Source of the DNA: Ostreococcus lucimarinus
Taxonomy: Eukaryota
Assembly (NCBI GenBank): GCA_000092065.1
Contig: CP000597.1
DNA length: 64,000 bases
Direction: 5' to 3' (one strand)
The notes under the pieces were generated by a model. It did no database searches. It saw nothing but the letters and a program-made list of their open reading frames with translations, and was not told the origin of the DNA. Positions 36,951 to 53,468 of this stretch are shown in pieces. The translations under genes and the position numbers were made by a program. Every line of letters begins with the position of its first letter. Within the stretch, counting starts at the first letter, position 1.

Positions 36951-39900
36951 ATGCGGCTCGACGACGGCGACGACGCGCGACGAAGGGACGCGCGCGCGGT
37001 TCGAGCGCGCGCGACGCGGACGCCGACGCGCGCGGCGACCACGCGCGGCGATGTCGTCGACGCCGCTGCCGCCGATGATGACATCGACGACGACGCCGTC
37101 GCGCGACCGGACGCGACGCGACGACGACGACGCGACGACGACGCGACGACGACGACGCGCGATGATGAGACGACGCGCGCGCGAGAGGGCGCGAGCGGAC
37201 GCCGGCGAGCGCGGGAACGAGGGAGAGCGACGAGGCGTCGTCGACGGCTCGGGACGGCGGCGGCGGCGGCGGCGACGGCGGCGTTGGCGGCGACGGTCGA
37301 GCGCGTCGGCGTGGACGCGTCGACGGCGCTCACGAAGGGGGTGGCGAGGAATGGTTTCGTGTCGTCGAGCGGGTATAAGTACTATAAGGTGAATGTGGCG
37401 TGCGTGGAGGCGGCGCAGCCGCTGACGTTGGAGCTGACGACGAGCAACGGGGACGCGAACTTGTACGTGTCTCGATCGGCGCAGCCGACGACTTCGTCGT
37501 ACGAACAGCGGAGCGTGAACGTTGGAAATGCGTTGGATTCGGTGACGATCACGAGTCCGGTGAATGGGTACTATTACGTGAGCGTGTACGGCGCGCTGTC
37601 CAGCACGTACAAGCTTCGAGCGCTCACGACGATGTTTACCGGGAAACATCCGTGCACGGGATTTCGAATCACCGATAGCGACGTCTCGAGCGTTGGCTCG
37701 GGATCTGGAAATCAGTTCATACTGCAAGAAGCGCTCACCGCGAGCGCGGCGGCGGGATTCACCGCGGATGTGTCCGTCGACGGCGACGTCATCCTCGGCG
37801 ACGCGTACACCGATTCGGTGACGGCGAAAGGAGAGCTCAAGCTCGGCGTGACGGACAGTACGTACTACGCCATCACGCGACAATCGCCGAGCGCACCGAG
37901 CAGCAACCCGGGCGGCGCTTTGTCGATCGTCGGCGCGAACGCGACCTATCAGGGGGGATCGGTAAAGATTCTCGGCGGAACGGGCGGTTCGGGGGCGGGC
38001 GGCGACGTCGTGATCGAGGCGGGGTCGGCGTCTGGCGGCAACGGTGGCGATTTGAAGTTACGTGGCGGCACGTCGAACTCAGGAACGGGCGGCGACGTCG
38101 TCATAGATGCCGGAGATAGCACGACACAAGCATCTTCGTACGAGGGCATCATTCACATAGGTCCAACTTCTGCGTCGTTTGTGCGCGTCGGCGAGAGTTC
38201 AAATAAGCAAGTTCAAACCGATATTTTCGGCGACTTGACGGTGCACGGAAATCTCTTGACAACGAATGATGTGGTGTACGCGAACAGCTACACGAGTTAC
38301 GTGCAGGTTTCAACCTCTCAAGACGGCATGTTTCATCAAGAAGTGCGCGCGCCAAAGATTACAGGTCTGGACGCGGAGGACATCACGGGCACTCCAACGA
38401 GCACGTTGACTTTAGACGCTGGCATGCGAGGGAGTCAGCAACACGTCGTGATCGCTCCGAGCGAGGCAACGGCGGTTTACATAGGTAGCAGCACATCCAC
38501 GATTCCGGTCTCGATAAGGCAAGGCGCGAACGCAGGAGACGTGCGAGTGCACGCTGATGGCAGCGGCGCGCTGTCCGTGACTTCGGCCGCAGGGCAGGAC
38601 CTGACGCTCGCGTCCGGCGACGACGTGGTGGTGACCACCGCGGCGAGTAAGACGCTCGCGCTGAAGCAGGACTCGACGAGCATTTTGAGCTGGGACGCGG
38701 CCGGCGCTGTGACTGTGAACTCCGTGAGCGGGCAGGACCTGACGCTGAGCACGGGCGGTAGCGCGGCCGTGACTGTGGACTCGACCGGGCAGGTGGGCAT
38801 CGGGACGACGACGCCGGGGAAGACGCTGGACGTCACCGGGACGGCGCGCGTGAGTGGCGCGACGACGCTGAGTAGCACGCTTGACGTGACTGGCGCTACG
38901 ACGCTCGCATCCGTGGGCGTGACCGGTGCGGCCACCGTCGGCGGGACTTTAGGTGTGACTGGCGCTACGACGCTCGCATCCGTGGGCGTGACCGGCGCGG
39001 CCACCGTCGGCGGGACTTTAGGTGTGACTGGCGCTACGACGCTCGCATCCGTGGGCGTGACCGGCGCGGCCACCGTCGGCACGACGCTCGGCGTGACTGG
39101 CGCTACGACGCTCACCGGCGACGTGACGATGAGCAACGACTTGACCGTGAGCGGTGCGCTTACTGTGACATCTGATGCCGCTGTGAGTTTGACCTCTGCA
39201 AGTGGTTCGGACGTGAGCTTGACGAGCGCCGGTACGGGTGGCATCGTGTTGACGTCGACGGACGACATCACGCTCGATGCTGCCGATGATGTGACGATCG
39301 ATGCCGCCGGTGCTTTGTCTTTGGAGCAGGGCGGGACGAGTATTTTGAGCTGGACCGACACCGGCGCTGTGACTTTGAACTCCTTAGGCGGGCAGACCCT
39401 GAGCGTGTCGAGCCTCAGCTCGGCCGGGAACGCGGGCGCCGTGAGCGTGTCCGGCGGCACGACGACTGGGACGTCCTCGAACACCGGCGGCGACTTGACG
39501 CTGCAATCTGGCGGCGCGCCCGCTGGCAGCGTGAACGGTGACGTTCTGGTGGACTCGGCCACTGGTCTAGGCACCGCCGGCTCGATCACGCTTCGCCAGG
39601 GGGTGGGCGGTGAGCGTGTTTCTGTGGACGCGAACGGCGCCGTGAGTCTGGACACGCACTCCGGGCAGGACCTGACGCTGAGCACGGGCGGTAGCGCGGC
39701 CGTGACTGTGGACTCGACCGGGCAGGTGGGCATCGGGACGACGACGCCGGGGAAGACGCTGGACGTCACCGGGACGGCGCGCGTGAGTGGCGCGACGACG
39801 CTGAGTAGCACGCTTGGCGTGACTGGCGCTACGACGCTCGCATCCGTGGGCGTGACCGGTGCGGCCACCGTCGGCGGGACTTTAGGTGTGACTGGCGCTA

Positions 39901-42900
39901 CGACGCTCGCATCCGTGGGCGTGACCGGCGCGGCCACCGTCGGCACGACGCTCGGCGTGACTGGCGCTACGACGCTCACCGGCGACGTGACGATGAGCAA
40001 CGACTTGACCGTGAGCGGTGCGCTTACTGTGACATCTGATGCCGCTGTGAGTTTGACCTCTGCAAGTGGTTCGGACGTGAGCTTGACGAGCGCCGGTACG
40101 GGTGGCATCGTGTTGACGTCGACGGACGACATCACGCTCGATGCTGCCGATGATGTGACGATCGATGCCGCCGGTGCTTTGTCTTTGGAGCAGGGCGGGA
40201 CGAGTATTTTGAGCTGGACCGACACCGGCGCTGTGACTTTGAACTCCTTAGGCGGGCAGACCCTGAGCGTGTCGAGCCTCAGCTCGGCCGGGAACGCGGG
40301 CGCCGTGAGCGTGTCCGGCGGCACGACGACTGGGACGTCCTCGAACACCGGCGGCGACTTGACGCTGCAATCTGGCGGCGCGCCCGCTGGCAGCGTGAAC
40401 GGTGACGTTCTGGTGGACTCGGCCACTGGTCTAGGCACCGCCGGCTCGATCACGCTTCGCCAGGGGGTGGGCGGTGAGCGTGTTTCTGTGGACGCGAACG
40501 GCGCCGTGAGTCTGGACACGCACTCCGGGCAGGACCTGACGCTGAGCACGGGCGGTAGCGCGGCCGTGACTGTGGACTCGACCGGGCAGGTGGGCATCGG
40601 GACGACGACGCCGGGGAAGACGCTGGACGTCACCGGGACGGCGCGCGTGAGTGGCGCGACGACGCTGAGTAGCACGCTTGGCGTGACTGGCGCTACGACG
40701 CTCGCATCCGTGGGCGTGACCGGTGCGGCCACCGTCGGCGGGACTTTAGGTGTGACTGGCGCTACGACGCTCGGCGGGACTTTAGGTGTGACTGGCGCTA
40801 CGACGCTCGCATCCGTGGGCGTGACCGGCGCGGCCACCGTCGGCACGACGCTTGGCGTGACTGGCGCTACGACGCTCGGCGGGACTTTAGGTGTGACTGG
40901 CGCTACGACGCTCGCATCCGTGGGCGTGACCGGCGCGGCCACCGTCGGCACGACGCTCGGCGTGACTGGCGCTACGACGCTCGCATCTGTGGGCGTGACC
41001 GGTGCGGCCACCGTCGGCGGGACTTTAGGTGTGACTGGCGCTACGACGCTCACCGGCGACGTGACGATGAGCAACGACTTGACCGTGAGCGGTGCGCTTA
41101 CTGTGACATCTGATGCCGCTGTGAGTTTGACCTCTGCAAGTGGTTCGGACGTGAGCTTGACGAGCGCCGGTACGGGTGGCATCGTGTTGACGTCGACGGA
41201 CGACATCACGCTCGATGCTGCCGATGATGTGACGATCGATGCCGCCGGTGCTTTGTCTTTGGAGCAGGGCGGGACGAGTATTTTGAGCTGGACCGACACC
41301 GGCGCTGTGACTTTGAACTCCTTAGGCGGGCAGACCCTGAGCGTGTCGAGCCTCAGCTCGGCCGGGAACGCGGGCGCCGTGAGCGTGTCCGGCGGCACGA
41401 CGACTGGGACGTCCTCGAACACCGGCGGCGACTTGACGCTGCAATCTGGCGGCGCGCCCGCTGGCAGCGTGAACGGTGACGTTCTGGTGGACTCGGCCAC
41501 TGGTCTAGGCACCGCCGGCTCGATCACGCTTCGCCAGGGGGTGGGCGGTGAGCGTGTTTCTGTGGACGCGAACGGCGCCGTGAGTCTGGACACGCACTCC
41601 GGGCAGGACCTGACGCTGAGCACGGGCGGTAGCGCGGCCGTGACTGTGGACTCGACCGGGCAGGTGGGCATCGGGACGACGACGCCGGGGAAGACGCTGG
41701 ACGTCACCGGGACGGCGCGCGTGAGTGGCGCGACGACGCTGAGTAGCACGCTTGGCGTGACTGGCGCTACGACGCTCGCATCCGTGGGCGTGACCGGTGC
41801 GGCCACCGTCGGCGGGACTTTAGGTGTGACTGGCGCTACGACGCTCGGCGGGACTTTAGGTGTGACTGGCGCTACGACGCTCGCATCCGTGGGCGTGACC
41901 GGTGCGGCCACCGTCGGCGGGACTTTAGGTGTGACTGGCGCTACGACGCTCGGCACGACGCTCGGCGTGACTGGCGCTACGACGCTCGCATCCGTGGGCG
42001 TGACCGGCGCGGCCACCGTCGGCACGACGCTCGGCGTGACTGGCGCTACGACGCTCACCGGCGACGTGACGATGAGCAACGACTTGACCGTGAGCGGTGC
42101 GCTTACTGTGACATCTGATGCCGCTGTGAGTTTGACCTCTGCAAGTGGTTCGGACGTGAGCTTGACGAGCGCCGGTACGGGTGGCATCGTGTTGACGTCG
42201 ACGGACGACATCACGCTCGATGCTGCCGATGATGTGACGATCGATGCCGCCGGTGCTTTGTCTTTGGAGCAGGGCGGGACGAGTATTTTGAGCTGGACCG
42301 ACACCGGCGCTGTGACTTTGAACTCCTTAGGCGGGCAGACCCTGAGCGTGTCGAGCCTCAGCTCGGCCGGGAACGCGGGCGCCGTGAGCGTGTCCGGCGG
42401 CACGACGACTGGGACGTCCTCGAACACCGGCGGCGACTTGACGCTGCAATCTGGCGGCGCGCCCGCTGGCAGCGTGAACGGTGACGTTCTGGTGGACTCG
42501 GCCACTGGTCTAGGCACCGCCGGCTCGATCACGCTTCGCCAGGGGGTGGGCGGTGAGCGTGTTTCTGTGGACGCGAACGGCGCCGTGAGTCTGGACACGC
42601 ACTCCGGGCAGGACCTGACGCTGAGCACGGGCGGTAGCGCGGCCGTGACTGTGGACTCGACCGGGCAGGTGGGCATCGGGACGACGACGCCGGGGAAGAC
42701 GCTGGACGTCACCGGGACGGCGCGCGTGAGTGGCGCGACGACGCTGAGTAGCACGCTTGGCGTGACTGGCGCTACGACGCTCGGCGGGACTTTAGGTGTG
42801 ACTGGCGCTACGACGCTCGCATCCGTGGGCGTGACCGGCGCGGCCACCGTCGGCACGACGCTCGGCGTGACTGGCGCTACGACGCTCGCATCCGTGGGCG

Positions 42901-45900
42901 TGACCGGCGCGGCCACCGTCGGCACGACGCTCGGCGTGACTGGCGCTACGACGCTCACCGGCGACGTGACGATGAGCAACGACTTGACCGTGAGCGGTGC
43001 GCTTACTGTGACATCTGATGCCGCTGTGAGTTTGACCTCTGCAAGTGGTTCGGACGTGAGCTTGACGAGCGCCGGTACGGGTGGCATCGTGTTGACGTCG
43101 ACGGACGACATCACGCTCGATGCTGCCGATGATGTGACGATCGATGCCGCCGGTGCTTTGTCTTTGGAGCAGGGCGGGACGAGTATTTTGAGCTGGACCG
43201 ACACCGGCGCTGTGACTTTGAACTCCTTAGGCGGGCAGACCCTGAGCGTGTCGAGCCTCAGCTCGGCCGGGAACGCGGGCGCCGTGAGCGTGTCCGGCGG
43301 CACGACGACTGGGACGTCCTCGAACACCGGCGGCGACTTGACGCTGCAATCTGGCGGCGCGCCCGCTGGCAGCGTGAACGGTGACGTTCTGGTGGACTCG
43401 GCCACTGGTCTAGGCACCGCCGGCTCGATCACGCTTCGCCAGGGGGTGGGCGGTGAGCGTGTTTCTGTGGACGCGAACGGCGCCGTGAGTCTGGACACGC
43501 ACTCCGGGCAGGACCTGACGCTGAGCACGGGCGGTAGCGCGGCCGTGACTGTGGACTCGACCGGGCAGGTGGGCATCGGGACGACGACGCCGGGGAAGAC
43601 GCTGGACGTCACCGGGACGGCGCGCGTGAGTGGCGCGACGACGCTGAGTAGCACGCTTGGCGTGACTGGCGCTACGACGCTCGCATCCGTGGGCGTGACC
43701 GGTGCGGCCACCGTCGGCGGGACTTTAGGTGTGACTGGCGCTACGACGCTCGCATCCGTGGGCGTGACCGGCGCGGCCACCGTCGGCACGACGCTCGGCG
43801 TGACTGGCGCTACGACGCTCGCATCCGTGGGCGTGACCGGCGCGGCCACCGTCGGCACGACGCTTGGCGTGACTGGCGCTACGACGCTCGGCGGGACTTT
43901 AGGTGTGACTGGCGCTACGACGCTCGCATCCGTGGGCGTGACCGGCGCGGCCACCGTCGGCACGACGCTCGGCGTGACTGGCGCTACGACGCTCGCATCT
44001 GTGGGCGTGACCGGTGCGGCCACCGTCGGCGGGACTTTAGGTGTGACTGGCGCTACGACGCTCACCGGCGACGTGACGATGAGCAACGACTTGACCGTGA
44101 GCGGTGCGCTTACTGTGACATCTGATGCCGCTGTGAGTTTGACCTCTGCAAGTGGTTCGGACGTGAGCTTGACGAGCGCCGGTACGGGTGGCATCGTGTT
44201 GACGTCGACGGACGACATCACGCTCGATGCTGCCGATGATGTGACGATCGATGCCGCCGGTGCTTTGTCTTTGGAGCAGGGCGGGACGAGTATTTTGAGC
44301 TGGACCGACACCGGCGCTGTGACTTTGAACTCCTTAGGCGGGCAGACCCTGAGCGTGTCGAGCCTCAGCTCGGCCGGGAACGCGGGCGCCGTGAGCGTGT
44401 CCGGCGGCACGACGACTGGGACGTCCTCGAACACCGGCGGCGACTTGACGCTGCAATCTGGCGGCGCGCCCGCTGGCAGCGTGAACGGTGACGTTCTGGT
44501 GGACTCGGCCACTGGTCTAGGCACCGCCGGCTCGATCACGCTTCGCCAGGGGGTGGGCGGTGAGCGTGTTTCTGTGGACGCGAACGGCGCCGTGAGTCTG
44601 GACACGCACTCCGGGCAGGACCTGACGCTGAGCACGGGCGGTAGCGCGGCCGTGACTGTGGACTCGACCGGGCAGGTGGGCATCGGGACGACGACGCCGG
44701 GGAAGACGCTGGACGTCACCGGGACGGCGCGCGTGAGTGGCGCGACGACGCTGAGTAGCACGCTTGACGTGACTGGCGTTACGACGCTCGCATCCGTGGG
44801 CGTGACCGGTGCGGCCACCGTCGGCACGACGCTCGGCGTGACTGGCGCTACGACGCTCGCATCCGTGGGCGTGACCGGTGCGGCCACCGTCGGCGGGACT
44901 TTAGGTGTGACTGGCGCTACGACGCTCGGCACGACGCTCGGCGTGACTGGCGCTACGACGCTCGCATCCGTGGGCGTGACCGGCGCGGCCACCGTCGGCA
45001 CGACGCTCGGCGTGACTGGCGCTACGACGCTCACCGGCGACGTGAGCGTCGGGACTTCCTCGGCTTTGAGTTTTGGTTCTGCAACCCGGCAGATGATCAA
45101 CTTATATGGAACAAACAACGCCATCGGCGTGCAATCGTCCACGATGTATTTTCGTAGTGCTTATAACTTTGCCTTTTTTGAAGGCGGCGTGTACACCAAC
45201 ACAGAGCTCGATCCGGGTTCGGGTGGCACTTTGCGCATGATGATTCAGAAAACCACGGGCAACGTCGGTATCGGGACGGCGAGTCCAGATTATGAACTCG
45301 ACGTGGTAGGCGATATCAACTTTTCTGGGAATCTCTATCAGGGTGGTTCGCTGTTTGCCTCCCCCTGGACGGAGAGCAGCGGTAACGTGTATCGCAGTAG
45401 CGGTAACGTCGGCATCGGGCTGACGAATCCGACCTACAATCTGCACGTTGCTGGAACGGGGCGCGTTAGTACGACGCTATCGGTGGGTCAAGATTTAACC
45501 ATCGACACGGCTGGCGACTTGAACTTTGCGGCGACGCATCGTCAGATGATCAACCTCCGCGTCGGCGCCGAGGGTTTCGGGATCGGGACGCAGATGGACA
45601 CGACGTACTTTCGCTCTCCGGGCCACTTTGCGTTCTACGAAGACGGAACGCACAGCACCACTGACTTGGACGCGAACGGTGGCACCGCGCGTCTGGTGAT
45701 CAGGAGCGGCGGGAAGGTGGGCATCGGGCGGACGAATCCGAGCTATGATCTCGACGTGGTAGGCGATATCAACTTTTCTGGGAATCTCTATCAGGGCGGT
45801 TCTCTGTTCCCGTCCCCCTCCCCCTGGACGGAGAGCGGCAGTAACGTGTATCGTAGTAGCGGTAACGTCGGCATCGGGCTGACGAATCCGAGCTACAAAC

Positions 45901-47045
45901 TGGACGTCACTGGAACAGGACACTTCACGGGCGCGACGACGATCGATGACCAACTCACCGTTGGCGGTAACGTATTGATCCAAAGTACAACCAATAAGAT
46001 TTCGTTTGGCAGCACAGCGCGTCAGTTTATTGAAACGAATAACGGTGGAATCGGAACGCAGTCAAAGACGCTGTATTTTCGTTCACAGGATTTTTTCGGC
46101 TTTTACAAAAATGGCGGTCACAACAGCGCCGATCTGAACCCAGGCGGAAGCGGGACTCTCCTTGTCGCCATTCGCGGTGACATCTCTGGTGCTCGAATGG
46201 CGATTGGATCTTCAGACACAGATAGTGGCTACGCTTTTAAGGTCACCGGGTCGGCGCAAGCGACCGCTGCGCTCGACGTAGGCACGACGCTTAATGTGGC
46301 GTCGTACGCGACAATTCGCGGCGACTTGCGCCTCAATACCGGTACTCAGCAAATAAATTTTGGTACCCAGCACCGTCAGGTTGCTGCGCTCGCGACTGGC
46401 GGCATCGGAACGCAGTCGAACACTGTATACTTTCGTTCACAGGACTTGTTTGGCTTTTATAAAGGTGGCGGCCATAGCTCTACCGCTCTTGATCCAGGCG
46501 GAAGCGGGACTCTCCTTGTCACCATTCGCGGTGACGTCTCTGGTCCTCGATTAGGAGTCGGAGTCACGAATCCCTCCTACGCTCTCGAAGTCAATGGAGC
46601 GGCGCACGTGTCTGGCGCACTGAGCAAGGGAAGTGGCTCTTTCAAGATCGATCATCCACTTCCTGAAATGAAAGACACGCATAATTTGTATCACTCCTTC
46701 ATCGAGGGACCACGGGCGGATCTCATCTACAGAGGCAAGGTTCGTTTGCAGAACGGTAGGGCGATGATAGACATCGATGCCGCATCAAACATGACGACAG
46801 GGACATTTGAAGCACTCAATCGCGACGTGCAGTCGTTCACGTCAAATGAAAGCGACTGGGACCCCGTCCGAGGTTCTGTCGTGGGCAACGTCCTCACCAT
46901 TGAGTGTCAAAACCCCACTTCGACGGCACTCATCAGCTGGCTTGTCATCGGTGAGCGTCACGATCAGCACATGTACGACACAGATTGGACCGATGAAAAC
47001 GGTCGTGTCGTTCCGGAACAATTGAAAAAGAGTGCGACGACGTGA
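36951..47045 (+). CDS. Giant (3364-aa) repetitive fibre-like protein with a PPC-type beta-sandwich domain, about 7 near-identical 0.86-1.1 kb tandem repeats, four VGIG-motif repeats of ~130 aa, and a conserved ~150-aa C-terminal domain. The 5' end is uncertain.
   Basis: PPC (pre-peptidase C-terminal)-like domain at ~37355-37630: YKYYKVNVACVEAAQPLTLELTTSNGDANLYVS...GYYYVSVYGALSSTYKLRAL. Repeat units start at 38733, 39663, 40527, 41601, 42606, 43506 and 44613, all in frame and rich in GVTGATTLASV/GVTGAATVGGTL sub-repeats. The region 45040-46560 has four repeats carrying G(N/K)VGIGTxxPxYxLDVxG and YFRSxxxFxFxxxG motifs. The C-terminal domain SFKIDHPLPEMKDTHNLYHSFIEGPRADLIYRGKVRLQNGRAMIDID resembles the conserved C-terminal domain of bacterial and phage tail-fibre-like proteins (recalled from memory). 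ATG at 36951, but the first ~100 aa are Arg/Asp-rich low complexity. Confidence 0.7.
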   Translation: MRLDDGDDARRRDARAVRARATRTPTRAATTRGDVVDAAAADDDIDDDAVARPDATRRRRRDDDATTTTRDDETTRAREGASGRRRARERGRATRRRRRLGTAAAAAATAALAATVERVGVDASTALTKGVARNGFVSSSGYKYYKVNVACVEAAQPLTLELTTSNGDANLYVSRSAQPTTSSYEQRSVNVGNALDSVTITSPVNGYYYVSVYGALSSTYKLRALTTMFTGKHPCTGFRITDSDVSSVGSGSGNQFILQEALTASAAAGFTADVSVDGDVILGDAYTDSVTAKGELKLGVTDSTYYAITRQSPSAPSSNPGGALSIVGANATYQGGSVKILGGTGGSGAGGDVVIEAGSASGGNGGDLKLRGGTSNSGTGGDVVIDAGDSTTQASSYEGIIHIGPTSASFVRVGESSNKQVQTDIFGDLTVHGNLLTTNDVVYANSYTSYVQVSTSQDGMFHQEVRAPKITGLDAEDITGTPTSTLTLDAGMRGSQQHVVIAPSEATAVYIGSSTSTIPVSIRQGANAGDVRVHADGSGALSVTSAAGQDLTLASGDDVVVTTAASKTLALKQDSTSILSWDAAGAVTVNSVSGQDLTLSTGGSAAVTVDSTGQVGIGTTTPGKTLDVTGTARVSGATTLSSTLDVTGATTLASVGVTGAATVGGTLGVTGATTLASVGVTGAATVGGTLGVTGATTLASVGVTGAATVGTTLGVTGATTLTGDVTMSNDLTVSGALTVTSDAAVSLTSASGSDVSLTSAGTGGIVLTSTDDITLDAADDVTIDAAGALSLEQGGTSILSWTDTGAVTLNSLGGQTLSVSSLSSAGNAGAVSVSGGTTTGTSSNTGGDLTLQSGGAPAGSVNGDVLVDSATGLGTAGSITLRQGVGGERVSVDANGAVSLDTHSGQDLTLSTGGSAAVTVDSTGQVGIGTTTPGKTLDVTGTARVSGATTLSSTLGVTGATTLASVGVTGAATVGGTLGVTGATTLASVGVTGAATVGTTLGVTGATTLTGDVTMSNDLTVSGALTVTSDAAVSLTSASGSDVSLTSAGTGGIVLTSTDDITLDAADDVTIDAAGALSLEQGGTSILSWTDTGAVTLNSLGGQTLSVSSLSSAGNAGAVSVSGGTTTGTSSNTGGDLTLQSGGAPAGSVNGDVLVDSATGLGTAGSITLRQGVGGERVSVDANGAVSLDTHSGQDLTLSTGGSAAVTVDSTGQVGIGTTTPGKTLDVTGTARVSGATTLSSTLGVTGATTLASVGVTGAATVGGTLGVTGATTLGGTLGVTGATTLASVGVTGAATVGTTLGVTGATTLGGTLGVTGATTLASVGVTGAATVGTTLGVTGATTLASVGVTGAATVGGTLGVTGATTLTGDVTMSNDLTVSGALTVTSDAAVSLTSASGSDVSLTSAGTGGIVLTSTDDITLDAADDVTIDAAGALSLEQGGTSILSWTDTGAVTLNSLGGQTLSVSSLSSAGNAGAVSVSGGTTTGTSSNTGGDLTLQSGGAPAGSVNGDVLVDSATGLGTAGSITLRQGVGGERVSVDANGAVSLDTHSGQDLTLSTGGSAAVTVDSTGQVGIGTTTPGKTLDVTGTARVSGATTLSSTLGVTGATTLASVGVTGAATVGGTLGVTGATTLGGTLGVTGATTLASVGVTGAATVGGTLGVTGATTLGTTLGVTGATTLASVGVTGAATVGTTLGVTGATTLTGDVTMSNDLTVSGALTVTSDAAVSLTSASGSDVSLTSAGTGGIVLTSTDDITLDAADDVTIDAAGALSLEQGGTSILSWTDTGAVTLNSLGGQTLSVSSLSSAGNAGAVSVSGGTTTGTSSNTGGDLTLQSGGAPAGSVNGDVLVDSATGLGTAGSITLRQGVGGERVSVDANGAVSLDTHSGQDLTLSTGGSAAVTVDSTGQVGIGTTTPGKTLDVTGTARVSGATTLSSTLGVTGATTLGGTLGVTGATTLASVGVTGAATVGTTLGVTGATTLASVGVTGAATVGTTLGVTGATTLTGDVTMSNDLTVSGALTVTSDAAVSLTSASGSDVSLTSAGTGGIVLTSTDDITLDAADDVTIDAAGALSLEQGGTSILSWTDTGAVTLNSLGGQTLSVSSLSSAGNAGAVSVSGGTTTGTSSNTGGDLTLQSGGAPAGSVNGDVLVDSATGLGTAGSITLRQGVGGERVSVDANGAVSLDTHSGQDLTLSTGGSAAVTVDSTGQVGIGTTTPGKTLDVTGTARVSGATTLSSTLGVTGATTLASVGVTGAATVGGTLGVTGATTLASVGVTGAATVGTTLGVTGATTLASVGVTGAATVGTTLGVTGATTLGGTLGVTGATTLASVGVTGAATVGTTLGVTGATTLASVGVTGAATVGGTLGVTGATTLTGDVTMSNDLTVSGALTVTSDAAVSLTSASGSDVSLTSAGTGGIVLTSTDDITLDAADDVTIDAAGALSLEQGGTSILSWTDTGAVTLNSLGGQTLSVSSLSSAGNAGAVSVSGGTTTGTSSNTGGDLTLQSGGAPAGSVNGDVLVDSATGLGTAGSITLRQGVGGERVSVDANGAVSLDTHSGQDLTLSTGGSAAVTVDSTGQVGIGTTTPGKTLDVTGTARVSGATTLSSTLDVTGVTTLASVGVTGAATVGTTLGVTGATTLASVGVTGAATVGGTLGVTGATTLGTTLGVTGATTLASVGVTGAATVGTTLGVTGATTLTGDVSVGTSSALSFGSATRQMINLYGTNNAIGVQSSTMYFRSAYNFAFFEGGVYTNTELDPGSGGTLRMMIQKTTGNVGIGTASPDYELDVVGDINFSGNLYQGGSLFASPWTESSGNVYRSSGNVGIGLTNPTYNLHVAGTGRVSTTLSVGQDLTIDTAGDLNFAATHRQMINLRVGAEGFGIGTQMDTTYFRSPGHFAFYEDGTHSTTDLDANGGTARLVIRSGGKVGIGRTNPSYDLDVVGDINFSGNLYQGGSLFPSPSPWTESGSNVYRSSGNVGIGLTNPSYKLDVTGTGHFTGATTIDDQLTVGGNVLIQSTTNKISFGSTARQFIETNNGGIGTQSKTLYFRSQDFFGFYKNGGHNSADLNPGGSGTLLVAIRGDISGARMAIGSSDTDSGYAFKVTGSAQATAALDVGTTLNVASYATIRGDLRLNTGTQQINFGTQHRQVAALATGGIGTQSNTVYFRSQDLFGFYKGGGHSSTALDPGGSGTLLVTIRGDVSGPRLGVGVTNPSYALEVNGAAHVSGALSKGSGSFKIDHPLPEMKDTHNLYHSFIEGPRADLIYRGKVRLQNGRAMIDIDAASNMTTGTFEALNRDVQSFTSNESDWDPVRGSVVGNVLTIECQNPTSTALISWLVIGERHDQHMYDTDWTDENGRVVPEQLKKSATT
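38733..45035. repeat. Coding macrosatellite: about 7 tandem copies of a 864-1107-bp unit, each built from 33/36-bp sub-repeats. Copies are near-identical at the DNA level.
   Basis: Stretches of several hundred bp are letter-identical between copies, for example 39121-39660 versus 39961-40500. Unit lengths differ by multiples of the ~69-bp sub-repeat pair. Confidence 0.9.
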
Positions 47046-47163: not shown

Positions 47164-50100
47164 CTATAGTCTAAAAGATAGCTTTGCGAACTCTCCGTCG
47201 GACACCGCGTCGCTCGTCTGCCCCCCCGTCGCGCCGTCATCGCTCGTTTCGCTTCCGAGCAACGAAGACGCCTTTCGCCGGCGCTCAGGCGAATCGTCCG
47301 CGTCCCGAAAATCGTAGAGATAATCGCTATGCCTTGCATAATGCACCCGCGTCGCTTCTTCTCCTGAGGCATTAAATCTATACGACTCGGGAGAAAATGA
47401 TGACTGAGCGAATCTGTCCTCATCTGACGCGCTCTCTTCGGCGTCGTACGATTCACCCATGGAATACGCCAGTTCGCTCGGTTCACGTTCACTCAGTCCA
47501 TCATTCGGTGTATTCAGCCCTGGTTGGCGTCCACTAGATGGGTCTTTCATCTCAAACGCGTAATGATCGTCATCCGAGTCAGCATCCGTGGAAGATGCGT
47601 AAGCACGCCGCGACTCAAACCTGTTCTCACCAAAAAATGCGGCGCCGCGTAGAGGTTCCGGTGGTTCCAGTTCTAGTTCGGGTTCCGGTTCCGGTCGCAC
47701 TTCCCGTTCTGCTGTCACATCCGTCTCTGGTGCGAGATCTAAGATGGACTGGTTCCGTCCGGGCACGACGTTACCCTGCTCTCCATTCGTCTCGAATGCG
47801 GCGAGCGTCGCGACGTGATCGCGAGCGACACTCCCGCCTCGGTGACCCTTTACGACGGCACGTTCTTCCTGAGCGCTGTGGGTGAATCTCTCAATCACGC
47901 TACGCGCTTTGGTTGATGCGTCAAATAACGCGCCACCAGGTTCGCGCGACCGCACGACTTTCTTTTTAATTCTGATTGCGAGTCGTCGAAGCTGAATCGT
48001 GTGCTTGATAATTTCCACCACCTCCTCGGTGTCGTACAGTCCCTCGTCGTCCGCTGATACTGAGAATCTTTCGAGAATGATCGCCACAAATAAATTTCCG
48101 AGCAAAAATATAGAGATGATGACAAATGATATAAAGTATGGGACCGCAGCAGCGTTATACGAGCAGTCGATGCTGGATTCCAACATGAACGGTGCTTCTG
48201 TGCGTAAGCACGCCTCTGTTTGGTACACCTCGCCGAACGTGCCAACCCAGCCACCCGTGTACACCCCGATGAGAGATGAGCAAGCTGTGGTGAATCGTTG
48301 AAAGTTCGAGTACTTCGATAGCACGCCGCCTTCGAAAGGGCCGGTTTCATCGCCGAAAAGTGAAACACCCATGATGGCGTACGAAAAGATCGCGAGGGAC
48401 GATAGCGCGGCGACGTTTCCGACACCCGGAAGACTCATTATGAACGTGTTGAAGAGCGACCGCAGCCCAGAATGTGCCTTTACCAGTTTCAGTAATCTCA
48501 ACAATCTCACCAATTGTAGGTAATTCATGACACCGCCTGCGTTTAGACTTTGTCCGATCGCCTGTACGATGGAAACTACGACGACGAAGGCGTCCAGCCA
48601 ATTCCAATAATTCCTAAAGTAACGCGTCCGACCTTGCGCCATGAGCAAAAGCATCATTTCCAAAGAGTACACCGCAGTGAACGCGATAGACATGCAGAAG
48701 TGAGCATATTCTGCTGAACTGCTCATATTCGCCGTTTGTGTCAAGAGCTCGATTAAATTTGCGCACACTACCACGAGGATGAAGTACGCAAACTTTTTCG
48801 GCTTTGAGATATGATGCGCAAGTAGACGAGCTCGCGACCAAAGGCTTTTGCCTGGCGGCGGTACGATTCTGCGCCATGCCTCTGAATCTTGCGTGCTTGC
48901 ACGTAGTATAGCCTGCTGCCAGCGCCGCTGCGCTGGGGTGACAAACGTAAGCTTGTCTTGCGAAGCCATCTTGTTAAAGTTGTCCACGAGCGCCGTGACT
49001 AATAAATTCAACCAAAAGAAATTCCCGATGGCGACCGTCAATACAAAATAAAGAGCGGCGGCTTGGTTGTTATCTGTTTTCAAGCCGGTCCCGACGCCTG
49101 TGGTATCCATGGCGACCCACATGATTTCTTGCCAGTCATCGCCGGCGTGCAGTAGAAACGTCGATAAAAGTGCAGCGCCAAAGTTATCAAAGTTGAACTT
49201 TGCATTTCGCCACTTTCCTCCCGCTGCCTCGCACGTTGCTTGTGTAGTGTAGCTACTCGCATCATTCACCACTCGACACGACCAAAACTTACCCATAAAG
49301 AGCTCCATACCAAGAAGTGCGAAAATTGACATGGAAACTAAACCGATGAAGCACACGTAACTTACGGCTGGGATCGCGGAAAGTACAGTGTTAACGACAA
49401 GGCGGAGACCAGGGAAACGACGAATGGATCGAAGCGGGCGCATGATTCGCAAAAGTCGAAGTGCTCGCACGCTTCCGCTGCCATCGTCTGCCGCGGTGAG
49501 CGAAATGATTGATGTAAAGACGACGACGCCATCGAGAATGTTGAAGGAATTCTTCAGATACGCAGTCGGTCGCTCGTACAACCCGTAGGCGAATAACTTT
49601 AATACCATCTCTGCGCCAAATAAAGTCGTAAAAGTAATATCAACCGCGGTGTACACTTTTGCAGTATGAGATCCCGCCACTGGCCAAGTCTTTGTTTCTG
49701 TCGCGAGTAACACGCTACCAGCGATGATCATGCATAGAATGGCGTTCTCAAAGAGGTTGTGTGAAACAATTTTGTGCACCAAGTATTTGTATCTCTCGAC
49801 GGGAATCGTATCGTCGTACAGCGGTATAAAGTCGCCATCTTTTGTGACGATCACGCCCGGTATCTCTGACGACTGTTTCTTCACGCGTGAGGAGATGGAT
49901 CTCGTGATTGTCGCCGCCCAAGGACCGTGCGCGTCAAAGACGACATGCTCGTCTTCCTTACTCTTATCCTCGATGCTTAAACGATTGTTTTGCGCCGCAA
50001 ATCTTTTCGTCATACTGTGCCTAATAGAACTTTTGATAGAGCTAGTCACCCCGAACGCTTTGTCTTGATAGTCTTGATACTCCACAAACTTTGGCGTCAG

Positions 50101-52740
50101 GCGAAGTTGAGCCTCCTTAAGAGCGTGCTCGCTTATGGTCAGTACTTGCGCCGGTGTCTTCAACTTGAATCCGATCGAATCTAGAAATATCCTGCACGCA
50201 GCAACATCTTCGACTGTTTGCTTTCTCAAGCGGTCCTTCTTGACCTGCGCGAGCTTGCCACCGTGATCCGGAGGCTTTAATGCTGCGAGTACGGATGAAA
50301 TCGCCGTAGGCGTACTGCCATCGGCCGTCTTTAAACTCTTTTTCGCTTGCGATTGTATTGCTTGTTCGGCACATTCTTGTTTCCTGGCCGCATCCAAAAG
50401 ATTAAACTTGAAGCTCGTATCACCTCTGTCTTTTATCGAGTCGCCGCGCTTGCTGCGCGCATGTTTTCGCAACGTACTCCTGAATGCGTTCGCCGCGAAT
50501 GTCATGTTTTGCAGTACCCGTTTCGCTTTCCGATTCGGATCTAGCACGATATCACCCGCACGTTCGATGGCAGACCTCAGTCTGCCATCTTCAAGCTCGT
50601 CTTGCGCGCGTTGCTCTTCCTCGATGTCGACGAGCGAACACGAGTCGATTAAAATCCCGAGCACGAGCGACAAGATGACGGTGGATAAAAAAATCCACGC
50701 GATGGTGTACAGAACGACGACGTCGTTACCGGACGCTACCATAGTATTCCACGCGACAACAAACGAGTCCTCTCCCGTGGCGACAACAAACAGCGTCAAC
50801 GCGCTGCGCAAAAAGTTCCTAAACGTCAAGCGCTCGTCGTCGAGCGCTCCTAACCCGGTGAAGAGTTGAAATCCGTAAATGGCAAATATGACTTGAAATA
50901 ATAGCCAAACGATCAAAAACGGCCACATGTCTTGGAAACCGAGATACGCGCTTGAAATGATCTTCCTAAATTCTCTGTTGTTTCTGATGACGCGAAACGT
51001 TCGCAGCGCCCTTCCTATTCGCAAGAGACGAATGAATGACGCGCTCACGCCTTGACTCGTCACCGCCGTACTGATGACACCGGTAAACACGATCAACCCA
51101 TCGACAACGTTTTGCTTTGAGCTCCAGTATCCTCTAAAGCCGTATCCGATGTGTTTAATCGCCATTTCTACAGCAAAACATCCGAGGAAAACATATTCTA
51201 AAATTTCAGAAGCCTTGACGAATCCCGACGACGCCGCGTGATGCTGCGACATCATCAAAATTGTATTAAATATAATAACCACCGTGATGCTGGCATCAAA
51301 ACGTCGGTCTTCAGCGATTTTCCAGCACATTTGACGCGTTGCATCAGACACAAAGAGACGAAAAAAACGCTCACCATTCTTGTGAAAGTTGTTTCCGCGT
51401 CCATCGCTTTCGCCGCGACTGAGCGCCGTCTCGTCGTCCAAGCTTTCTAGTACTTTCTCTGTCTTCGCCTGGCTCGAGTCTTCGGGCGCTTCGTCTTCGT
51501 CGCGAATACCCATTTGCGTCAACGTCGCGCAAATGACGGATGTAAAGAGTTCCATCATAAAAAACCCACCCATCAGAACGACGACGATGAACCAAAGAAA
51601 CGCCGCGGGATAGCCAACCGCGTACGCCGTGGGATTGAGCAACTCATTCCAACCGTCGATGGTCATTCCATTTAACGCGACAATTGAACTTCTCCCAGCG
51701 TTCGCAAAGCTCAGAAATCCGTCATACGGCTCGATGCCCGAATCACAGCACCACTCCGTCGCGCTTCTGTTTGTGTTCCATTCCTTGTAGTTGCACGTGC
51801 TGTCGTACTCATTTGGGTACGTTCCTTCGGCGCCCAACGCGAGAGCGCCCATCCACGCGCCGACCAAGTTCGCACACGTCTCACTCCCCGTCCCCACGGG
51901 AAACACGTAGCTCGCGTTCGTCGCTTGATCCGGCGGCGTCCCGTACCACCGTCCCGTCATCCGACCGCCGAACATCGTCACGCCGCTCACCGCGAAGAAT
52001 ATTAAAAACCACAGCAAAAACAACAGCACGTCCCCCAACAACGGCAGCGCTCGAGCGATCGTTTTCATCGCCAACCTCGCGCTGCGGTACTTCGCGAACA
52101 ACTTGAACGCGTACAACGACCGCAACAGTCGCACCGTCACCACCTGCGAGCCTCCGATCGGCATCAACATCAACGACAGCACGACGAGCGTGAAATCGAA
52201 CCGATGCCAATTCGTCGTCAAGTACGCCCCCTCGCCCAGCGCGAATCCCAGCGCCACGCTCTTCACCAGCGCCTCCGCCGCGAACACCCCCGCGACGACG
52301 TAATTCGCCGCCGTCGCCGCCGTCGCCTCCGCCGCGCCATCCCTCGCCGGTTTCACCACCGCGACGATCGCGCTCGAGCCCACGACGCACATCGCGACGA
52401 CGGCGTGAAACGCGCGCGCCTCGATCGCGCGCGCGCAGAACCGTCGCGTCGCGCCGTCGCGCCGGAACATCAACAGCGACGCGTCGTTCGCGCGCCATCG
52501 CTCGAGCGTCCTCGCGACGCGTCGCGTCACCGCGCCTCCCGCGTCGTCGTCGCCGTCGCGCGCGTCGTCGTCGTCGTCGTCGCGCGCGCGCGCGCCGTCG
52601 CGCGCGTCGCGCGCGTCGCCGTCGTCGTCGTCGTCGTCGCTCGTCGAGCTCGCGCGCGCGCTGTCGTCCACCTTCCGCGCGCGCGCCTCGCGCGCGTCGC
52701 GCGCGCGCGACACGAACGCGTCCGTGAACTGAAAGTTCAT
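47164..52740 (-). CDS. Four-domain voltage-gated cation channel (Cav/Nav superfamily), 1858 aa.
   Basis: Four homologous 6-TM domains, each with an S4 segment of Arg/Lys at every third position (e.g. VRALRLLRIMRPLRSIRRF, LRTFRVIRNNREFRKII) and four pore loops (TIDGWNE, ATGEDSF, HAGDDWQE, YTGGWVG). Uninterrupted ORF with an ATG at 52738-52740. The N-terminal poly-Asp is encoded by (GTC)n. Confidence 0.9.
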   Translation of the reverse strand: MNFQFTDAFVSRARDAREARARKVDDSARASSTSDDDDDDGDARDARDGARARDDDDDDARDGDDDAGGAVTRRVARTLERWRANDASLLMFRRDGATRRFCARAIEARAFHAVVAMCVVGSSAIVAVVKPARDGAAEATAATAANYVVAGVFAAEALVKSVALGFALGEGAYLTTNWHRFDFTLVVLSLMLMPIGGSQVVTVRLLRSLYAFKLFAKYRSARLAMKTIARALPLLGDVLLFLLWFLIFFAVSGVTMFGGRMTGRWYGTPPDQATNASYVFPVGTGSETCANLVGAWMGALALGAEGTYPNEYDSTCNYKEWNTNRSATEWCCDSGIEPYDGFLSFANAGRSSIVALNGMTIDGWNELLNPTAYAVGYPAAFLWFIVVVLMGGFFMMELFTSVICATLTQMGIRDEDEAPEDSSQAKTEKVLESLDDETALSRGESDGRGNNFHKNGERFFRLFVSDATRQMCWKIAEDRRFDASITVVIIFNTILMMSQHHAASSGFVKASEILEYVFLGCFAVEMAIKHIGYGFRGYWSSKQNVVDGLIVFTGVISTAVTSQGVSASFIRLLRIGRALRTFRVIRNNREFRKIISSAYLGFQDMWPFLIVWLLFQVIFAIYGFQLFTGLGALDDERLTFRNFLRSALTLFVVATGEDSFVVAWNTMVASGNDVVVLYTIAWIFLSTVILSLVLGILIDSCSLVDIEEEQRAQDELEDGRLRSAIERAGDIVLDPNRKAKRVLQNMTFAANAFRSTLRKHARSKRGDSIKDRGDTSFKFNLLDAARKQECAEQAIQSQAKKSLKTADGSTPTAISSVLAALKPPDHGGKLAQVKKDRLRKQTVEDVAACRIFLDSIGFKLKTPAQVLTISEHALKEAQLRLTPKFVEYQDYQDKAFGVTSSIKSSIRHSMTKRFAAQNNRLSIEDKSKEDEHVVFDAHGPWAATITRSISSRVKKQSSEIPGVIVTKDGDFIPLYDDTIPVERYKYLVHKIVSHNLFENAILCMIIAGSVLLATETKTWPVAGSHTAKVYTAVDITFTTLFGAEMVLKLFAYGLYERPTAYLKNSFNILDGVVVFTSIISLTAADDGSGSVRALRLLRIMRPLRSIRRFPGLRLVVNTVLSAIPAVSYVCFIGLVSMSIFALLGMELFMGKFWSCRVVNDASSYTTQATCEAAGGKWRNAKFNFDNFGAALLSTFLLHAGDDWQEIMWVAMDTTGVGTGLKTDNNQAAALYFVLTVAIGNFFWLNLLVTALVDNFNKMASQDKLTFVTPAQRRWQQAILRASTQDSEAWRRIVPPPGKSLWSRARLLAHHISKPKKFAYFILVVVCANLIELLTQTANMSSSAEYAHFCMSIAFTAVYSLEMMLLLMAQGRTRYFRNYWNWLDAFVVVVSIVQAIGQSLNAGGVMNYLQLVRLLRLLKLVKAHSGLRSLFNTFIMSLPGVGNVAALSSLAIFSYAIMGVSLFGDETGPFEGGVLSKYSNFQRFTTACSSLIGVYTGGWVGTFGEVYQTEACLRTEAPFMLESSIDCSYNAAAVPYFISFVIISIFLLGNLFVAIILERFSVSADDEGLYDTEEVVEIIKHTIQLRRLAIRIKKKVVRSREPGGALFDASTKARSVIERFTHSAQEERAVVKGHRGGSVARDHVATLAAFETNGEQGNVVPGRNQSILDLAPETDVTAEREVRPEPEPELELEPPEPLRGAAFFGENRFESRRAYASSTDADSDDDHYAFEMKDPSSGRQPGLNTPNDGLSEREPSELAYSMGESYDAEESASDEDRFAQSSFSPESYRFNASGEEATRVHYARHSDYLYDFRDADDSPERRRKASSLLGSETSDDGATGGQTSDAVSDGEFAKLSFRL

Positions 52741-52976
52741 CGAATCCCGGCGCGTCGCGCGCCGCGCGTCGCGCGCGCGCGCCGCTGTGCCGACGAATCG
52801 AATCGAAACCGCATTCGCATTCGCGAATCGCGCGCGTCAGAGCGCCGCGCGACACGCCGCTCGACGCGACGCGCCGCGTCGCGACGCGCGACGCCGCGCT
52901 CGACGCGCGCGCGCGCGCGCGACGCGCTGAAAACGACGCGACGCGCTGAAAACGGCGCGTTCGATCGCGCGCGGGC
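52741..52976. promoter_or_regulatory. 236-bp bidirectional promoter region shared by the channel gene (minus) and the calmodulin gene (plus). It contains a 15-bp direct repeat gacgcgctgaaaacg x2 (52921-52935, 52940-52954).
   Basis: Divergent ATGs at 52740 and 52977. The repeat is read directly and sits 22 bp upstream of the calmodulin ATG. The regulatory function is inferred only. Confidence 0.4.
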
Positions 52977-53468
52977 ATGTCGCGGAAACACCTCACGGAC
53001 GAGGAGCTCGCGAGCGCGTGGCCGTACCTCACGCGCGCGCAGGTGCAGGAGTTCAAGGAGGCGTTCGATATATTCGACGTCGACGGCGGCGGGACGATCA
53101 CGGCGGAGGAGCTCGGGGAGGTGATGAAGTCGCTCGGGCAGAAACCGACGAGGGCGCAGCTGGAGGCGATGGTGCGGGAGATCGACGCGGACGGGGACGG
53201 GGCGATCGATTTTCCAGAGTTTTTGACGATGATGCTGCGGAAGATGAACGAGGGTGATCCGGAGAGGGAGCTCAGGGACGTGTTCACGGTGTTCGATAAG
53301 GATCAGAGCGGGACGATTAGCGCGGATGAGCTGAAGAGCGTGATGAAGGTCATCGGGGAGAAACTGACGGAGCAAGAGATCGAGGACGCGATTCGGTTGG
53401 CGGATACCACGGGAGACGGAGAGGTTGATTACGATGAGTTCATCGCGTTCGTGCTGTCGTCGAATTAA
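52977..53468 (+). CDS. Calmodulin / calmodulin-like protein (4 EF-hands, 163 aa).
   Basis: Near-canonical calmodulin sequence: [65 protein letters not shown]...[54 protein letters not shown]. Four DxDxDG loops. Intronless, with an ATG at 52977. Confidence 0.9.

Follow-up and report, generated by a model that had tools for sequence, protein, structure and literature searches.

A four-domain channel with a D/E/D/G selectivity filter and its divergently transcribed calmodulin-like neighbor in Ostreococcus lucimarinus

We analyzed a 64,000-nucleotide stretch of Ostreococcus lucimarinus DNA (contig CP000597.1; referred to here as the window) in which a gene for a four-domain channel, Ostrel3, lies head-to-head with a gene for an EF-hand protein, OlCaM1. 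The channel has a predicted D/E/D/G selectivity filter that is conserved across its clade, and the two genes are probably an ordinary bidirectional pair of independent genes, created by an Ostreococcus-specific rearrangement. The channel gene (XP_001422214.1) is an intron-free open reading frame (ORF) of 1858 amino acids at positions 47164 to 52740 on the minus strand. OlCaM1 (XP_001422109.1; A4S9Q9) encodes 163 amino acids with four EF-hands at positions 52977 to 53468 on the plus strand. The two start codons are separated by a CG-rich spacer of 236 bp (positions 52741 to 52976). The divergent channel and EF-hand ORFs and the length of the spacer are as described in an earlier reading of the locus (here, the original prediction), which further proposed that the spacer co-regulates a channel and the calmodulin that gates it.

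Published catalogues already list both genes. NCBI entry XP_001422109.1 and UniProt entry A4S9Q9 of O. lucimarinus CCE9901 match the EF-hand ORF exactly. OlCaM1 is listed as an intron-free gene of 492 nucleotides and 163 amino acids at Chr_17:148977..149468 (supplement of PMC5291997), and the window hence corresponds to chromosome 17, approximately positions 96001 to 160000. The channel ORF contains four Pfam Ion_trans (PF00520) repeats (E value, 5e-171), and its S4 strings are those given for Ostrel3 in Table S2 of Pozdnyakov et al. 2018 (PMC5824947), a survey of four-domain channels that includes Ostrel1 to Ostrel3 and Micros1 to Micros8 from Mamiellophyceae. The survey already tabulates the S4 segments, inactivation gate, and IQ status of Ostrel3; its text discusses prasinophyte filters with R/H and does not discuss D/E/D/G or genomic context. 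In the literature that we searched, there was no report of the channel/OlCaM1 gene pair and no discussion of a D/E/D/G filter. The clade-wide combination of D/E/D/G with a deletion, and the Ostreococcus-specific gene juxtaposition, are absent from that literature.

The selectivity filter of the channel

To assign the filter residues, we aligned each pore module separately, using HMMER, against all solved structures (Cav3, Cav1, and Nav chains). The four pore motifs, TIDGW, TGEDS, GDDW, and TGGW, begin at residues 360, 655, 1200, and 1495, respectively. In domain I ("mtidgw," aligned with "itlegw" of Cav3 and "itmegw" of Cav1.1), D362 (codon at 51655 to 51657, minus strand, as are all filter codons) falls on the filter Glu of Cav3.3, Cav3.1, and Cav1.1. 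In domain II ("atgedsf," aligned with "ltgedwn" of Cav1), E657 of TGEDSF (50770 to 50772) falls on the Glu of TGEDW in Cav1.1 and Cav1.3, and a Ser (S659) occupies the n+2 position in place of the usually invariant Trp. In domain III ("agddw," aligned with "skdgw"), D1201 of AGDDW (49138 to 49140) falls on the Asp of SKDGW in Cav3.3 and Cav3.2, with an E value of 2e-34 for the segment. The codons of these three residues were checked.

The domain IV loop is 1 residue shorter than those of Cav and Nav channels, and the assignment of Gly at the fourth position consequently depends on anchoring the alignment on the conserved Trp. HMMER alignments identified G1496 of YTGGW (48253 to 48255) as this position: they either open a gap opposite the filter Asp of Cav3 ("ytg.gw" versus "stgdnw") or, in an alternative placement, set G1496 on the Ala of Nav1.5 ("yt.ggw" against "tsagw"). 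The predicted filter is D362/E657/D1201/G1496, that is, a D/E/D ring with a domain IV position that lacks a side chain. There are additional acidic residues at the n+1 positions of domains II and III.

Conservation of these residues is high. D362, T655, G656, E657, and D1201 are invariant in 13 homologues and G1496 is nearly so; likewise, the three ring carboxylates and the two n+1 carboxylates are invariant or nearly invariant. Many of the relatives come from metagenome contigs, for which the labels Ostreococcus-type, Bathycoccus-like, and Micromonas/Mantoniella-like denote only classes of GC content and identity. The patterns TIDGW, TGE[DN][ST]F, GD[DN]W, and [TS]G[GN]W are invariant or nearly invariant in nine Ostreococcus-type orthologues (51 to 63% identical) and in deeper GC-rich relatives. 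Thus, the D-E-D-G reading that the original prediction had reached by manual alignment was borne out by profile alignment to solved Cav/Nav chains, and the filter is conserved in every orthologue and in the deeper Mamiellophyceae relatives.

We also searched domains III and IV against 1.84 billion representative proteins and read the filters of the matches with the Trp anchor. Among 150 representatives, the D/E/D/G signature was limited to the ~16 nearest clusters; a Mantoniella antarctica protein belongs to one of them. The remaining matches had mostly EEEE (42), EEDD (10), or EDEE (9) filters, with a few DEEA and DEKA. Global pairwise alignment of 161 homologues had yielded "EEEG" filters in most cases; these were an artifact of the deletion in domain IV of the query, and re-anchoring on the Trp converted them to EEEE, EEDD, and so on. 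We concluded that the predicted D/E/D/G filter is a clade character confined to Mamiellophyceae.

A possible second D/E/D/G paralogue, 29 to 34% identical and with the domain IV loop [LM]SGNW, occurs beside a 40 to 43% identical orthologue in each GC class (contigs L044 to L049, L054, and L085 at GC 0.52 to 0.57; L048 to L066 at GC 0.44 to 0.46; L067 to L084 at GC 0.65 to 0.69). The presence of two such paralogues per GC class suggests an old duplication within Mamiellophyceae.

Channel family, voltage sensors, and cytoplasmic segments

The best solved relatives of the channel are Cav3.2 (8e-130), Cav1.2 (3e-108), and Nav1.2 (5e-106); NALCN matched only at 1e-32 and over a partial stretch. Bit scores were 438 for Cav3 and about 360 for Cav1 and Nav. 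With four Ion_trans repeats, a full-length alignment to Cav and Nav channels, and S4 sensors, the sequence identifies the product as a member of the four-domain voltage-gated cation channel superfamily (Cav/Nav/NALCN).

Assignment within the superfamily is less simple. Cav3 (T-type; filter E/E/D/D) is the top-scoring solved relative, with an E value of 5e-63 for the domain III pore module against Cav3.2. Like Cav3, the channel has Asp rather than Glu in domain III and lacks both AID and an IQ motif. Unlike Cav3, it has a D/E/D/G filter, a shortened domain IV loop, a domain II without the Trp, and a Nav-type TFVT particle. The I-II linker (residues ~410 to 480) is short and poorly conserved (0.18 to 0.34), and no counterpart of the Cav3 gating brake, a helix-loop-helix in the proximal I-II linker, is evident. 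Membership in Cav3, as suggested by the best scores, was rejected because of the filter and linker features. Published trees leave the protist clades unresolved relative to Cav3.

We rejected three other families. A Nav1 channel (D/E/K/A) would have Lys at the domain III filter position, where this channel has D1201, although the TFVT motif does correspond to the Nav inactivation particle. NALCN and Cch1, which have an E/E/K/E-type filter and S4 segments poor in charge, were rejected on the low NALCN score and on a filter without Lys. The third family is Nav2/Cav4 (D/E/E/A), to which the original prediction had considered the channel closest. The DEEA-filter channels Nav2, DSC1, and BSC1 are Ca2+-permeable or Ca2+-selective. 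The resemblance to the invertebrate Nav2/DSC1/BSC1 ("Cav4") filter is real insofar as the order of residues is Asp, Glu, acidic, small, with no Lys. However, the domain III residue is Asp and not Glu, domain IV has Gly in a loop that is 1 residue shorter, and there is no evidence of common descent. The sequence as a whole scores best to Cav3, and DEEA-type representatives (P0339 and P0341) are far down the match list, behind many EEEE and EEDD channels (about 1e-100, versus 1e-127 for EEEE-type). The similarity to the DEEA/DEES filters thus stands as a pattern, whereas the placement nearest to those channels does not.

The S4 segments of domains II to IV each carry 4 to 7 Arg/Lys residues, spaced every third position. 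The S4 segment of domain I is poorer in charge, with two adjacent regularly spaced Arg residues (R204 and R207) followed by Y210. The III-IV linker contains the motif T-F-V-T (residues 1265 to 1268; positions 48937 to 48948, minus strand), which resembles the Nav-type inactivation particle, and it is the most conserved cytoplasmic segment of the channel (0.92 identical across 9 orthologues). The published survey lists the inactivation gate of Ostrel3 as "TFVT" and the docking site as T/N/N. The survey (PMC5824947) treats the inactivation particle as ancestral to FVCCs, the voltage-gated cation channels with four domains, and TFVT is on that account not diagnostic of Nav.

The channel is most likely a depolarization-activated, fast-inactivating cation channel that passes Ca2+. 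We infer this from the three ring carboxylates, the two n+1 carboxylates, the lack of Lys, and the behavior of DEEA channels. An alternative is that the channel is not a voltage-gated path for Ca2+ entry but a four-domain channel of the leak or sensor type with weak selectivity. Loss of 1 residue from the domain IV P-loop and the replacement of Trp by Ser in domain II would make the filter wider or nonfunctional, and voltage sensing would be weakened by the paucity of charges in the S4 segment of domain I. We nevertheless consider this alternative very improbable, given the regularly spaced charges in the other three S4 segments, the conservation of the III-IV inactivation linker, the near invariance of the ring and n+1 carboxylates, and a similarity to NALCN that is far below those to Cav and Nav.

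Homology to Cav and Nav channels stops just past IVS6. The original prediction had invoked gating by calmodulin through a C-terminal IQ region. This did not hold for Ostrel3: both pre-IQ and IQ are given as "Not identified" in the published analysis (PMC5824947), in which Ostrel2, also from O. lucimarinus, has an IQ motif. Our scans with the regular expression [FILV]Qxxx[RK]Gxxx[RK] and relaxed forms of it did not find an IQ motif in the C terminus; their sole match was an irrelevant one in the II-III linker.

Of the sequence past IVS6, only a basic amphipathic helix is conserved (residues 1568 to 1600, LYDTEEVVEIIKHTIQLRRLAIRIKKKVVRSRE; positions 47941 to 48039, minus strand). Conservation of this segment is 0.72 to 0.80, versus 0.2 to 0.5 elsewhere in the C terminus. 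It has a net charge of +4 and contains …IIKHTIQLRRLAIRIKKKVV… and an IQ-like stretch, IQLRRLAIRIKKKV. The IQLRRL segment was rejected as a canonical IQ motif for want of a basic residue at position 6, and the helix was retained solely as a candidate regulatory or calmodulin (CaM)-binding site. An AlphaFold2 model of residues 1300 to 1858, built from a 12-sequence alignment (mean pLDDT, 50), was informative only about the voltage sensor and the lack of a confident C-terminal fold. The model has a helix at residues 1571 to 1599 with low pLDDT (51 to 58) and coil at residues 1627 to 1847 (pLDDT, about 30). In this low-confidence model, the C-terminal tail is predicted to be mostly disordered, and no folded C-terminal domain is predicted.

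The first ~100 codons of the channel gene have a GC content of 0.73 and encode a low-complexity N terminus rich in D, R, and A. The tail is otherwise poorly conserved, but its last stretch, SSLLG…D..FA..S.RL (positions 47167 to 47178), is a conserved block that terminates in -[SF]RL; this block could be a trafficking or PDZ-type signal.

OlCaM1 and the head-to-head gene pair

A canonical calmodulin has about 149 amino acids and four EF-hands and is roughly 85% or more identical to animal and plant CaM. OlCaM1 resembles calmodulins and CMLs (calmodulin-like proteins) in having four EF-hands (Pfam) and helices of calmodulin length; its top PDB matches are all calmodulin (about 1e-53), and automated annotations call it "calmodulin." It differs from canonical calmodulin in being only 57% identical to vertebrate CaM (the reference sequence agrees with the alignment to solved calmodulins), in having a 14-residue N-terminal extension, in having Gly at position 5 of the EF1 loop and Thr at position 3 of the EF4 loop, and in belonging to a conserved green-algal family of its own. 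The O. lucimarinus gene table (PMC5291997) lists a second CaM, OlCaM5, of 149 amino acids on Chr_1, with the N terminus MAADLT, and two CMLs. Because of this separate 149-amino-acid protein and the 57% identity, we regarded OlCaM1, at 163 amino acids, as a paralogue and not the canonical sensor. We concluded that OlCaM1 is a CML, with four EF-hands, the size of CaM, moderate identity to it, and no further domain; the neighbor called calmodulin in the original prediction is a divergent paralogue.

Members of the OlCaM1 family (P0174, P0184, and P0200; 162 to 163 amino acids, with the N-terminal extension retained) are 78% identical in Mesostigma and 73% in Klebsormidium, both streptophyte algae, and 64% in Pyramimonas; identity among green algae exceeds identity to calmodulin. 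The family seems to be an ancient, unnamed paralogue of CaM in green algae, and it ranges much more widely than the channel clade does. OlCaM1 is strongly constrained, being 82 to 90% identical among lineages whose channels are 51 to 62% identical.

We determined the linkage of the two genes in 73 channel loci from a metagenome scan, which were searched by tblastn with OlCaM1. The CML gene was upstream of the channel and on the opposite strand in all 24 loci where channel identity was 51% or higher and the upstream flank exceeded 1.3 kb. Four further loci with channels at least 51% identical had no CML match and an upstream flank of less than 1.1 kb. No other channel locus among the 73 had a CML match by tblastn. 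These other loci included those in Bathycoccus-like contigs (GC 0.44 to 0.47; a 40% identical orthologue or a 32 to 33% identical paralogue), in Micromonas/Mantoniella-like contigs (GC 0.64 to 0.69), and, for a 33% identical channel paralogue, in contigs with GC 0.52 to 0.57. Six-frame scans for EF loops in five more loci likewise detected no CML, and the positive controls worked.

CML orthologues with the same N-terminal extension do occur in GC-rich contigs, where they adjoin a dynein heavy chain gene or lie between DUF6737 and PIG-Y, with no channel neighbor. In the Micromonas-like contigs (L012, 3676 to 13164; L013, 2691 to 12179), the CML orthologue is convergent with a very large dynein heavy chain gene about 60 bp away. 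Thus, both genes are present and unlinked in Bathycoccus-like and Micromonas/Mantoniella-like relatives, which is the situation that the original prediction had named as evidence against a co-regulated pair.

In Ostreococcus-type contigs (GC 0.55 to 0.60), the divergent channel/CML pair is always inside one collinear block, with the order KH/WW, FG-GAP, kinase, DUF6737, CML, channel, PseudoU synthase, DAO; this block is also present in the window. The Bathycoccus-like and Micromonas-like channel loci have PLDc_2 and Spore_III_AA/PTPase neighbors in common. We take these shared neighbors to mean that the PLDc_2/Spore_III_AA neighborhood is older and that the CML-channel juxtaposition is derived, having arisen in the Ostreococcus stem. 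Linkage of the pair is confined to loci in which the entire block is collinear, that is, linkage is not retained beyond general synteny, and we attribute retention of the pair within Ostreococcus to the collinearity of the block.

The spacer contains a tandem repeat on the plus strand, of two copies of a 19-bp unit, CGCGACGCGCTGAAAACG (18 nucleotides exact; positions 52918 to 52936 and 52937 to 52955). The original prediction had noted a 15-bp direct repeat here; a repeat is indeed present, but it is longer, with a 19-bp period. Two matches to the repeat occurred in 0 of 100 dinucleotide-preserving shuffles of the window. The repeat core, GCTGAAAACG, is found nowhere else in the window and is absent from the 17 related loci examined, and we conclude from this comparison that the repeat is probably species-specific. 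The spacers of six lineages (the window and five relatives) could not be aligned (40% mean column identity), and there was no conserved block among them. The genes are divergent, with 188 to 292 bp from start codon to start codon, in most Ostreococcus-type lineages. In one such lineage (L002/L003, 5483 to 6001), an ORF of 172 amino acids lies directly against the channel start codon, from which the EF-hand gene is at least 764 bp away, with microsatellites of (GA)n and (TA)n in between; in this lineage, the N terminus of the channel or the spacer has been remodeled.

The spacer presumably holds both core promoters and both 5′ untranslated regions, an arrangement that is common in these genomes. 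In five relatives, divergent junctions make up 17 of 42 gene junctions (about 40%) and have a median spacer of 154 bp; the 236-bp spacer is in the upper half of the local distribution. With its divergent orientation and 236 bp from start to start, the pair is within the limit of 1 kb between 5′ ends that defines bidirectional pairs by layout. A study of O. tauri described 2288 bidirectional pairs, which take in 3884 transcripts (PMC4035068). We concluded that genes arranged head-to-head about 200 bp apart are the norm here and that the pair is structurally undistinguished.

The two genes differ in codon usage. OlCaM1 has a GC content at third codon positions (GC3) of 0.85 and an effective number of codons (Nc) of 33. 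The channel gene has a GC3 of 0.63 and an Nc of 52.6; of the 15 gene entries for which codon usage was measured in the window, it shows the weakest bias. Such bias, which bears on the level of expression only and not on its pattern, suggests that OlCaM1 is highly expressed and the channel weakly expressed. The channel gene body has a GC content of about 0.50, versus 0.62 to 0.65 in the flanks, in every Ostreococcus-type lineage (window, 47164 to 52000; L001, L002, L004, and L007). We take this low GC content to reflect the weak codon bias of a membrane protein probably expressed at a low level. The low GC content had also raised the possibility of a location on an outlier chromosome, which we rejected: the locus is on chromosome 17, a normal chromosome, and low GC3 is common to all orthologues.

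The simplest account of these data, and in our judgment the probable one, is that a rearrangement in the Ostreococcus stem lineage set two independent genes head-to-head and that the general collinearity of a very compact genome would have kept them adjacent since. OlCaM1 would then be a general-purpose calmodulin-like sensor, and the two genes would probably share a bidirectional promoter region, as do roughly half of Ostreococcus genes. We infer that the two proteins are not functionally coupled. By contrast, the co-regulated channel-sensor pair of the original prediction is unsupported: OlCaM1 is a noncanonical CaM, the channel has no IQ motif, the genes are unlinked outside Ostreococcus, neither spacer nor repeat is conserved, and codon bias differs. 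We find no sequence evidence that would point to specific co-regulation or to a dedicated channel-sensor partnership.

Several observations weigh against independence of the two genes. With 3 channels, 2 neighbors each, 4 CaM/CML genes, and 7796 genes in total, the expected number of channel-CaM/CML adjacencies is about 0.003, rising to perhaps 0.1 if all Ca2+-related channels and all EF-hand proteins are counted. This low expectation is the one real argument for significance; yet it is post hoc and concerns a single rearrangement event. The pair also survives in at least six Ostreococcus lineages despite the divergence of their channels to 51 to 62% identity. The post-IVS6 helix, although a candidate only, is of the type of segment that CaM-like proteins bind. 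Furthermore, divergent pairs with spacers of less than 300 bp are often co-expressed in other eukaryotes.

The last point bears on the possibility of co-regulation without physical interaction, in which the spacer is a true bidirectional promoter that responds to a common cue (light/dark or stress) and the proteins act in separate pathways. Bidirectional promoters commonly yield correlated expression, and the divergent orientation and short start-to-start distance in most lineages are as this possibility would require. Against it, no motif is conserved in the spacer, the tandem repeat is confined to one species, codon bias implies very different steady-state levels, and the same could be claimed for each of the roughly 2288 bidirectional pairs of Ostreococcus. 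We regard co-regulation of this kind as unlikely.

Distinctly unlikely, in our view, is that OlCaM1 is the resident Ca2+ sensor of the channel, replacing a lost IQ calmodulation by binding the post-IVS6 helix or another conserved cytoplasmic segment, with the juxtaposition retained for matched expression. The small chance expectation, the linkage in 24 of 24 informative Ostreococcus-type loci, the conserved, basic, IQ-like helix, and the higher identity of OlCaM1 than of the channels all fit such a module. In IQ-calmodulated high-voltage-activated Cav channels and in Nav channels, there is likewise a four-domain channel and a calmodulin-family protein. Unlike those systems, however, Ostrel3 lacks pre-IQ, IQ, and a predicted folded C-terminal domain, and the neighbor is a 57% identical paralogue. 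The helix is also conserved in Micromonas-like relatives in which the genes are unlinked, and by its position it could equally be the start of a degenerate C-terminal domain. The CML family reaches Mesostigma and Klebsormidium, well past the channel clade; the two genes differ greatly in codon bias; and the spacer is not conserved, being at least 764 bp with microsatellites in one lineage. The likely independence of the two genes is the reading that we prefer, and the main value of the result is negative: adjacency in an Ostreococcus genome is weak evidence for partnership.

A broader proposal would join the two halves of the locus: the Mamiellophyceae D/E/D/G channels, with their shortened domain IV loop and a domain II loop that lacks the Trp, would form a functionally new selectivity class, and the Ostreococcus channel would have lost IQ calmodulation and gained OlCaM1 as a dedicated sensor that binds the post-IVS6 helix. 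We consider this combination improbable and give it little credence. Each half would matter if true. Ostreococcus, a nonmotile, 1-µm alga, is the smallest free-living eukaryote. A distinct selectivity would provide a natural case of D/E/D/G with a deletion for reasoning about the evolution of Ca2+ versus Na+ selectivity and would tell us what such an alga does with a fast-inactivating voltage-gated channel. Regulation of the channel by the CML would be an example of IQ-free calmodulation linked to a gene juxtaposition peculiar to one lineage.

Neighboring sequence in the window

Three long ORFs overlap or lie antisense to other sequence: one of 2221 amino acids at positions 38477 to 45142 (minus strand), one of 468 amino acids at 51881 to 53287 (minus strand), and one of 306 amino acids at 52204 to 53124 (plus strand). 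Together they cover the spacer and both gene starts. They are not genes but by-products of GC-rich, stop-poor sequence and of repeats.

Between the PseudoU synthase/DAO genes and the channel lies a highly repetitive ORF of 3364 amino acids (positions 36951 to 47045, plus strand), made of "GVTGATTLASVGVTGAATVGGTL" units in super-repeats of ~430 amino acids. In all the Ostreococcus-type relatives that we examined, PseudoU synthase directly adjoins the channel, and we therefore take the ORF to be an O. lucimarinus-specific insertion of ~10 kb. It contains a Pfam bacterial PPC domain, and its C-terminal 848 amino acids match the phage tail-fiber PHROG phrog_9942 (4e-12) and, weakly, the Bdellovibrio fiber bd2133. 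The ORF may be a horizontally acquired fiber or adhesin gene.

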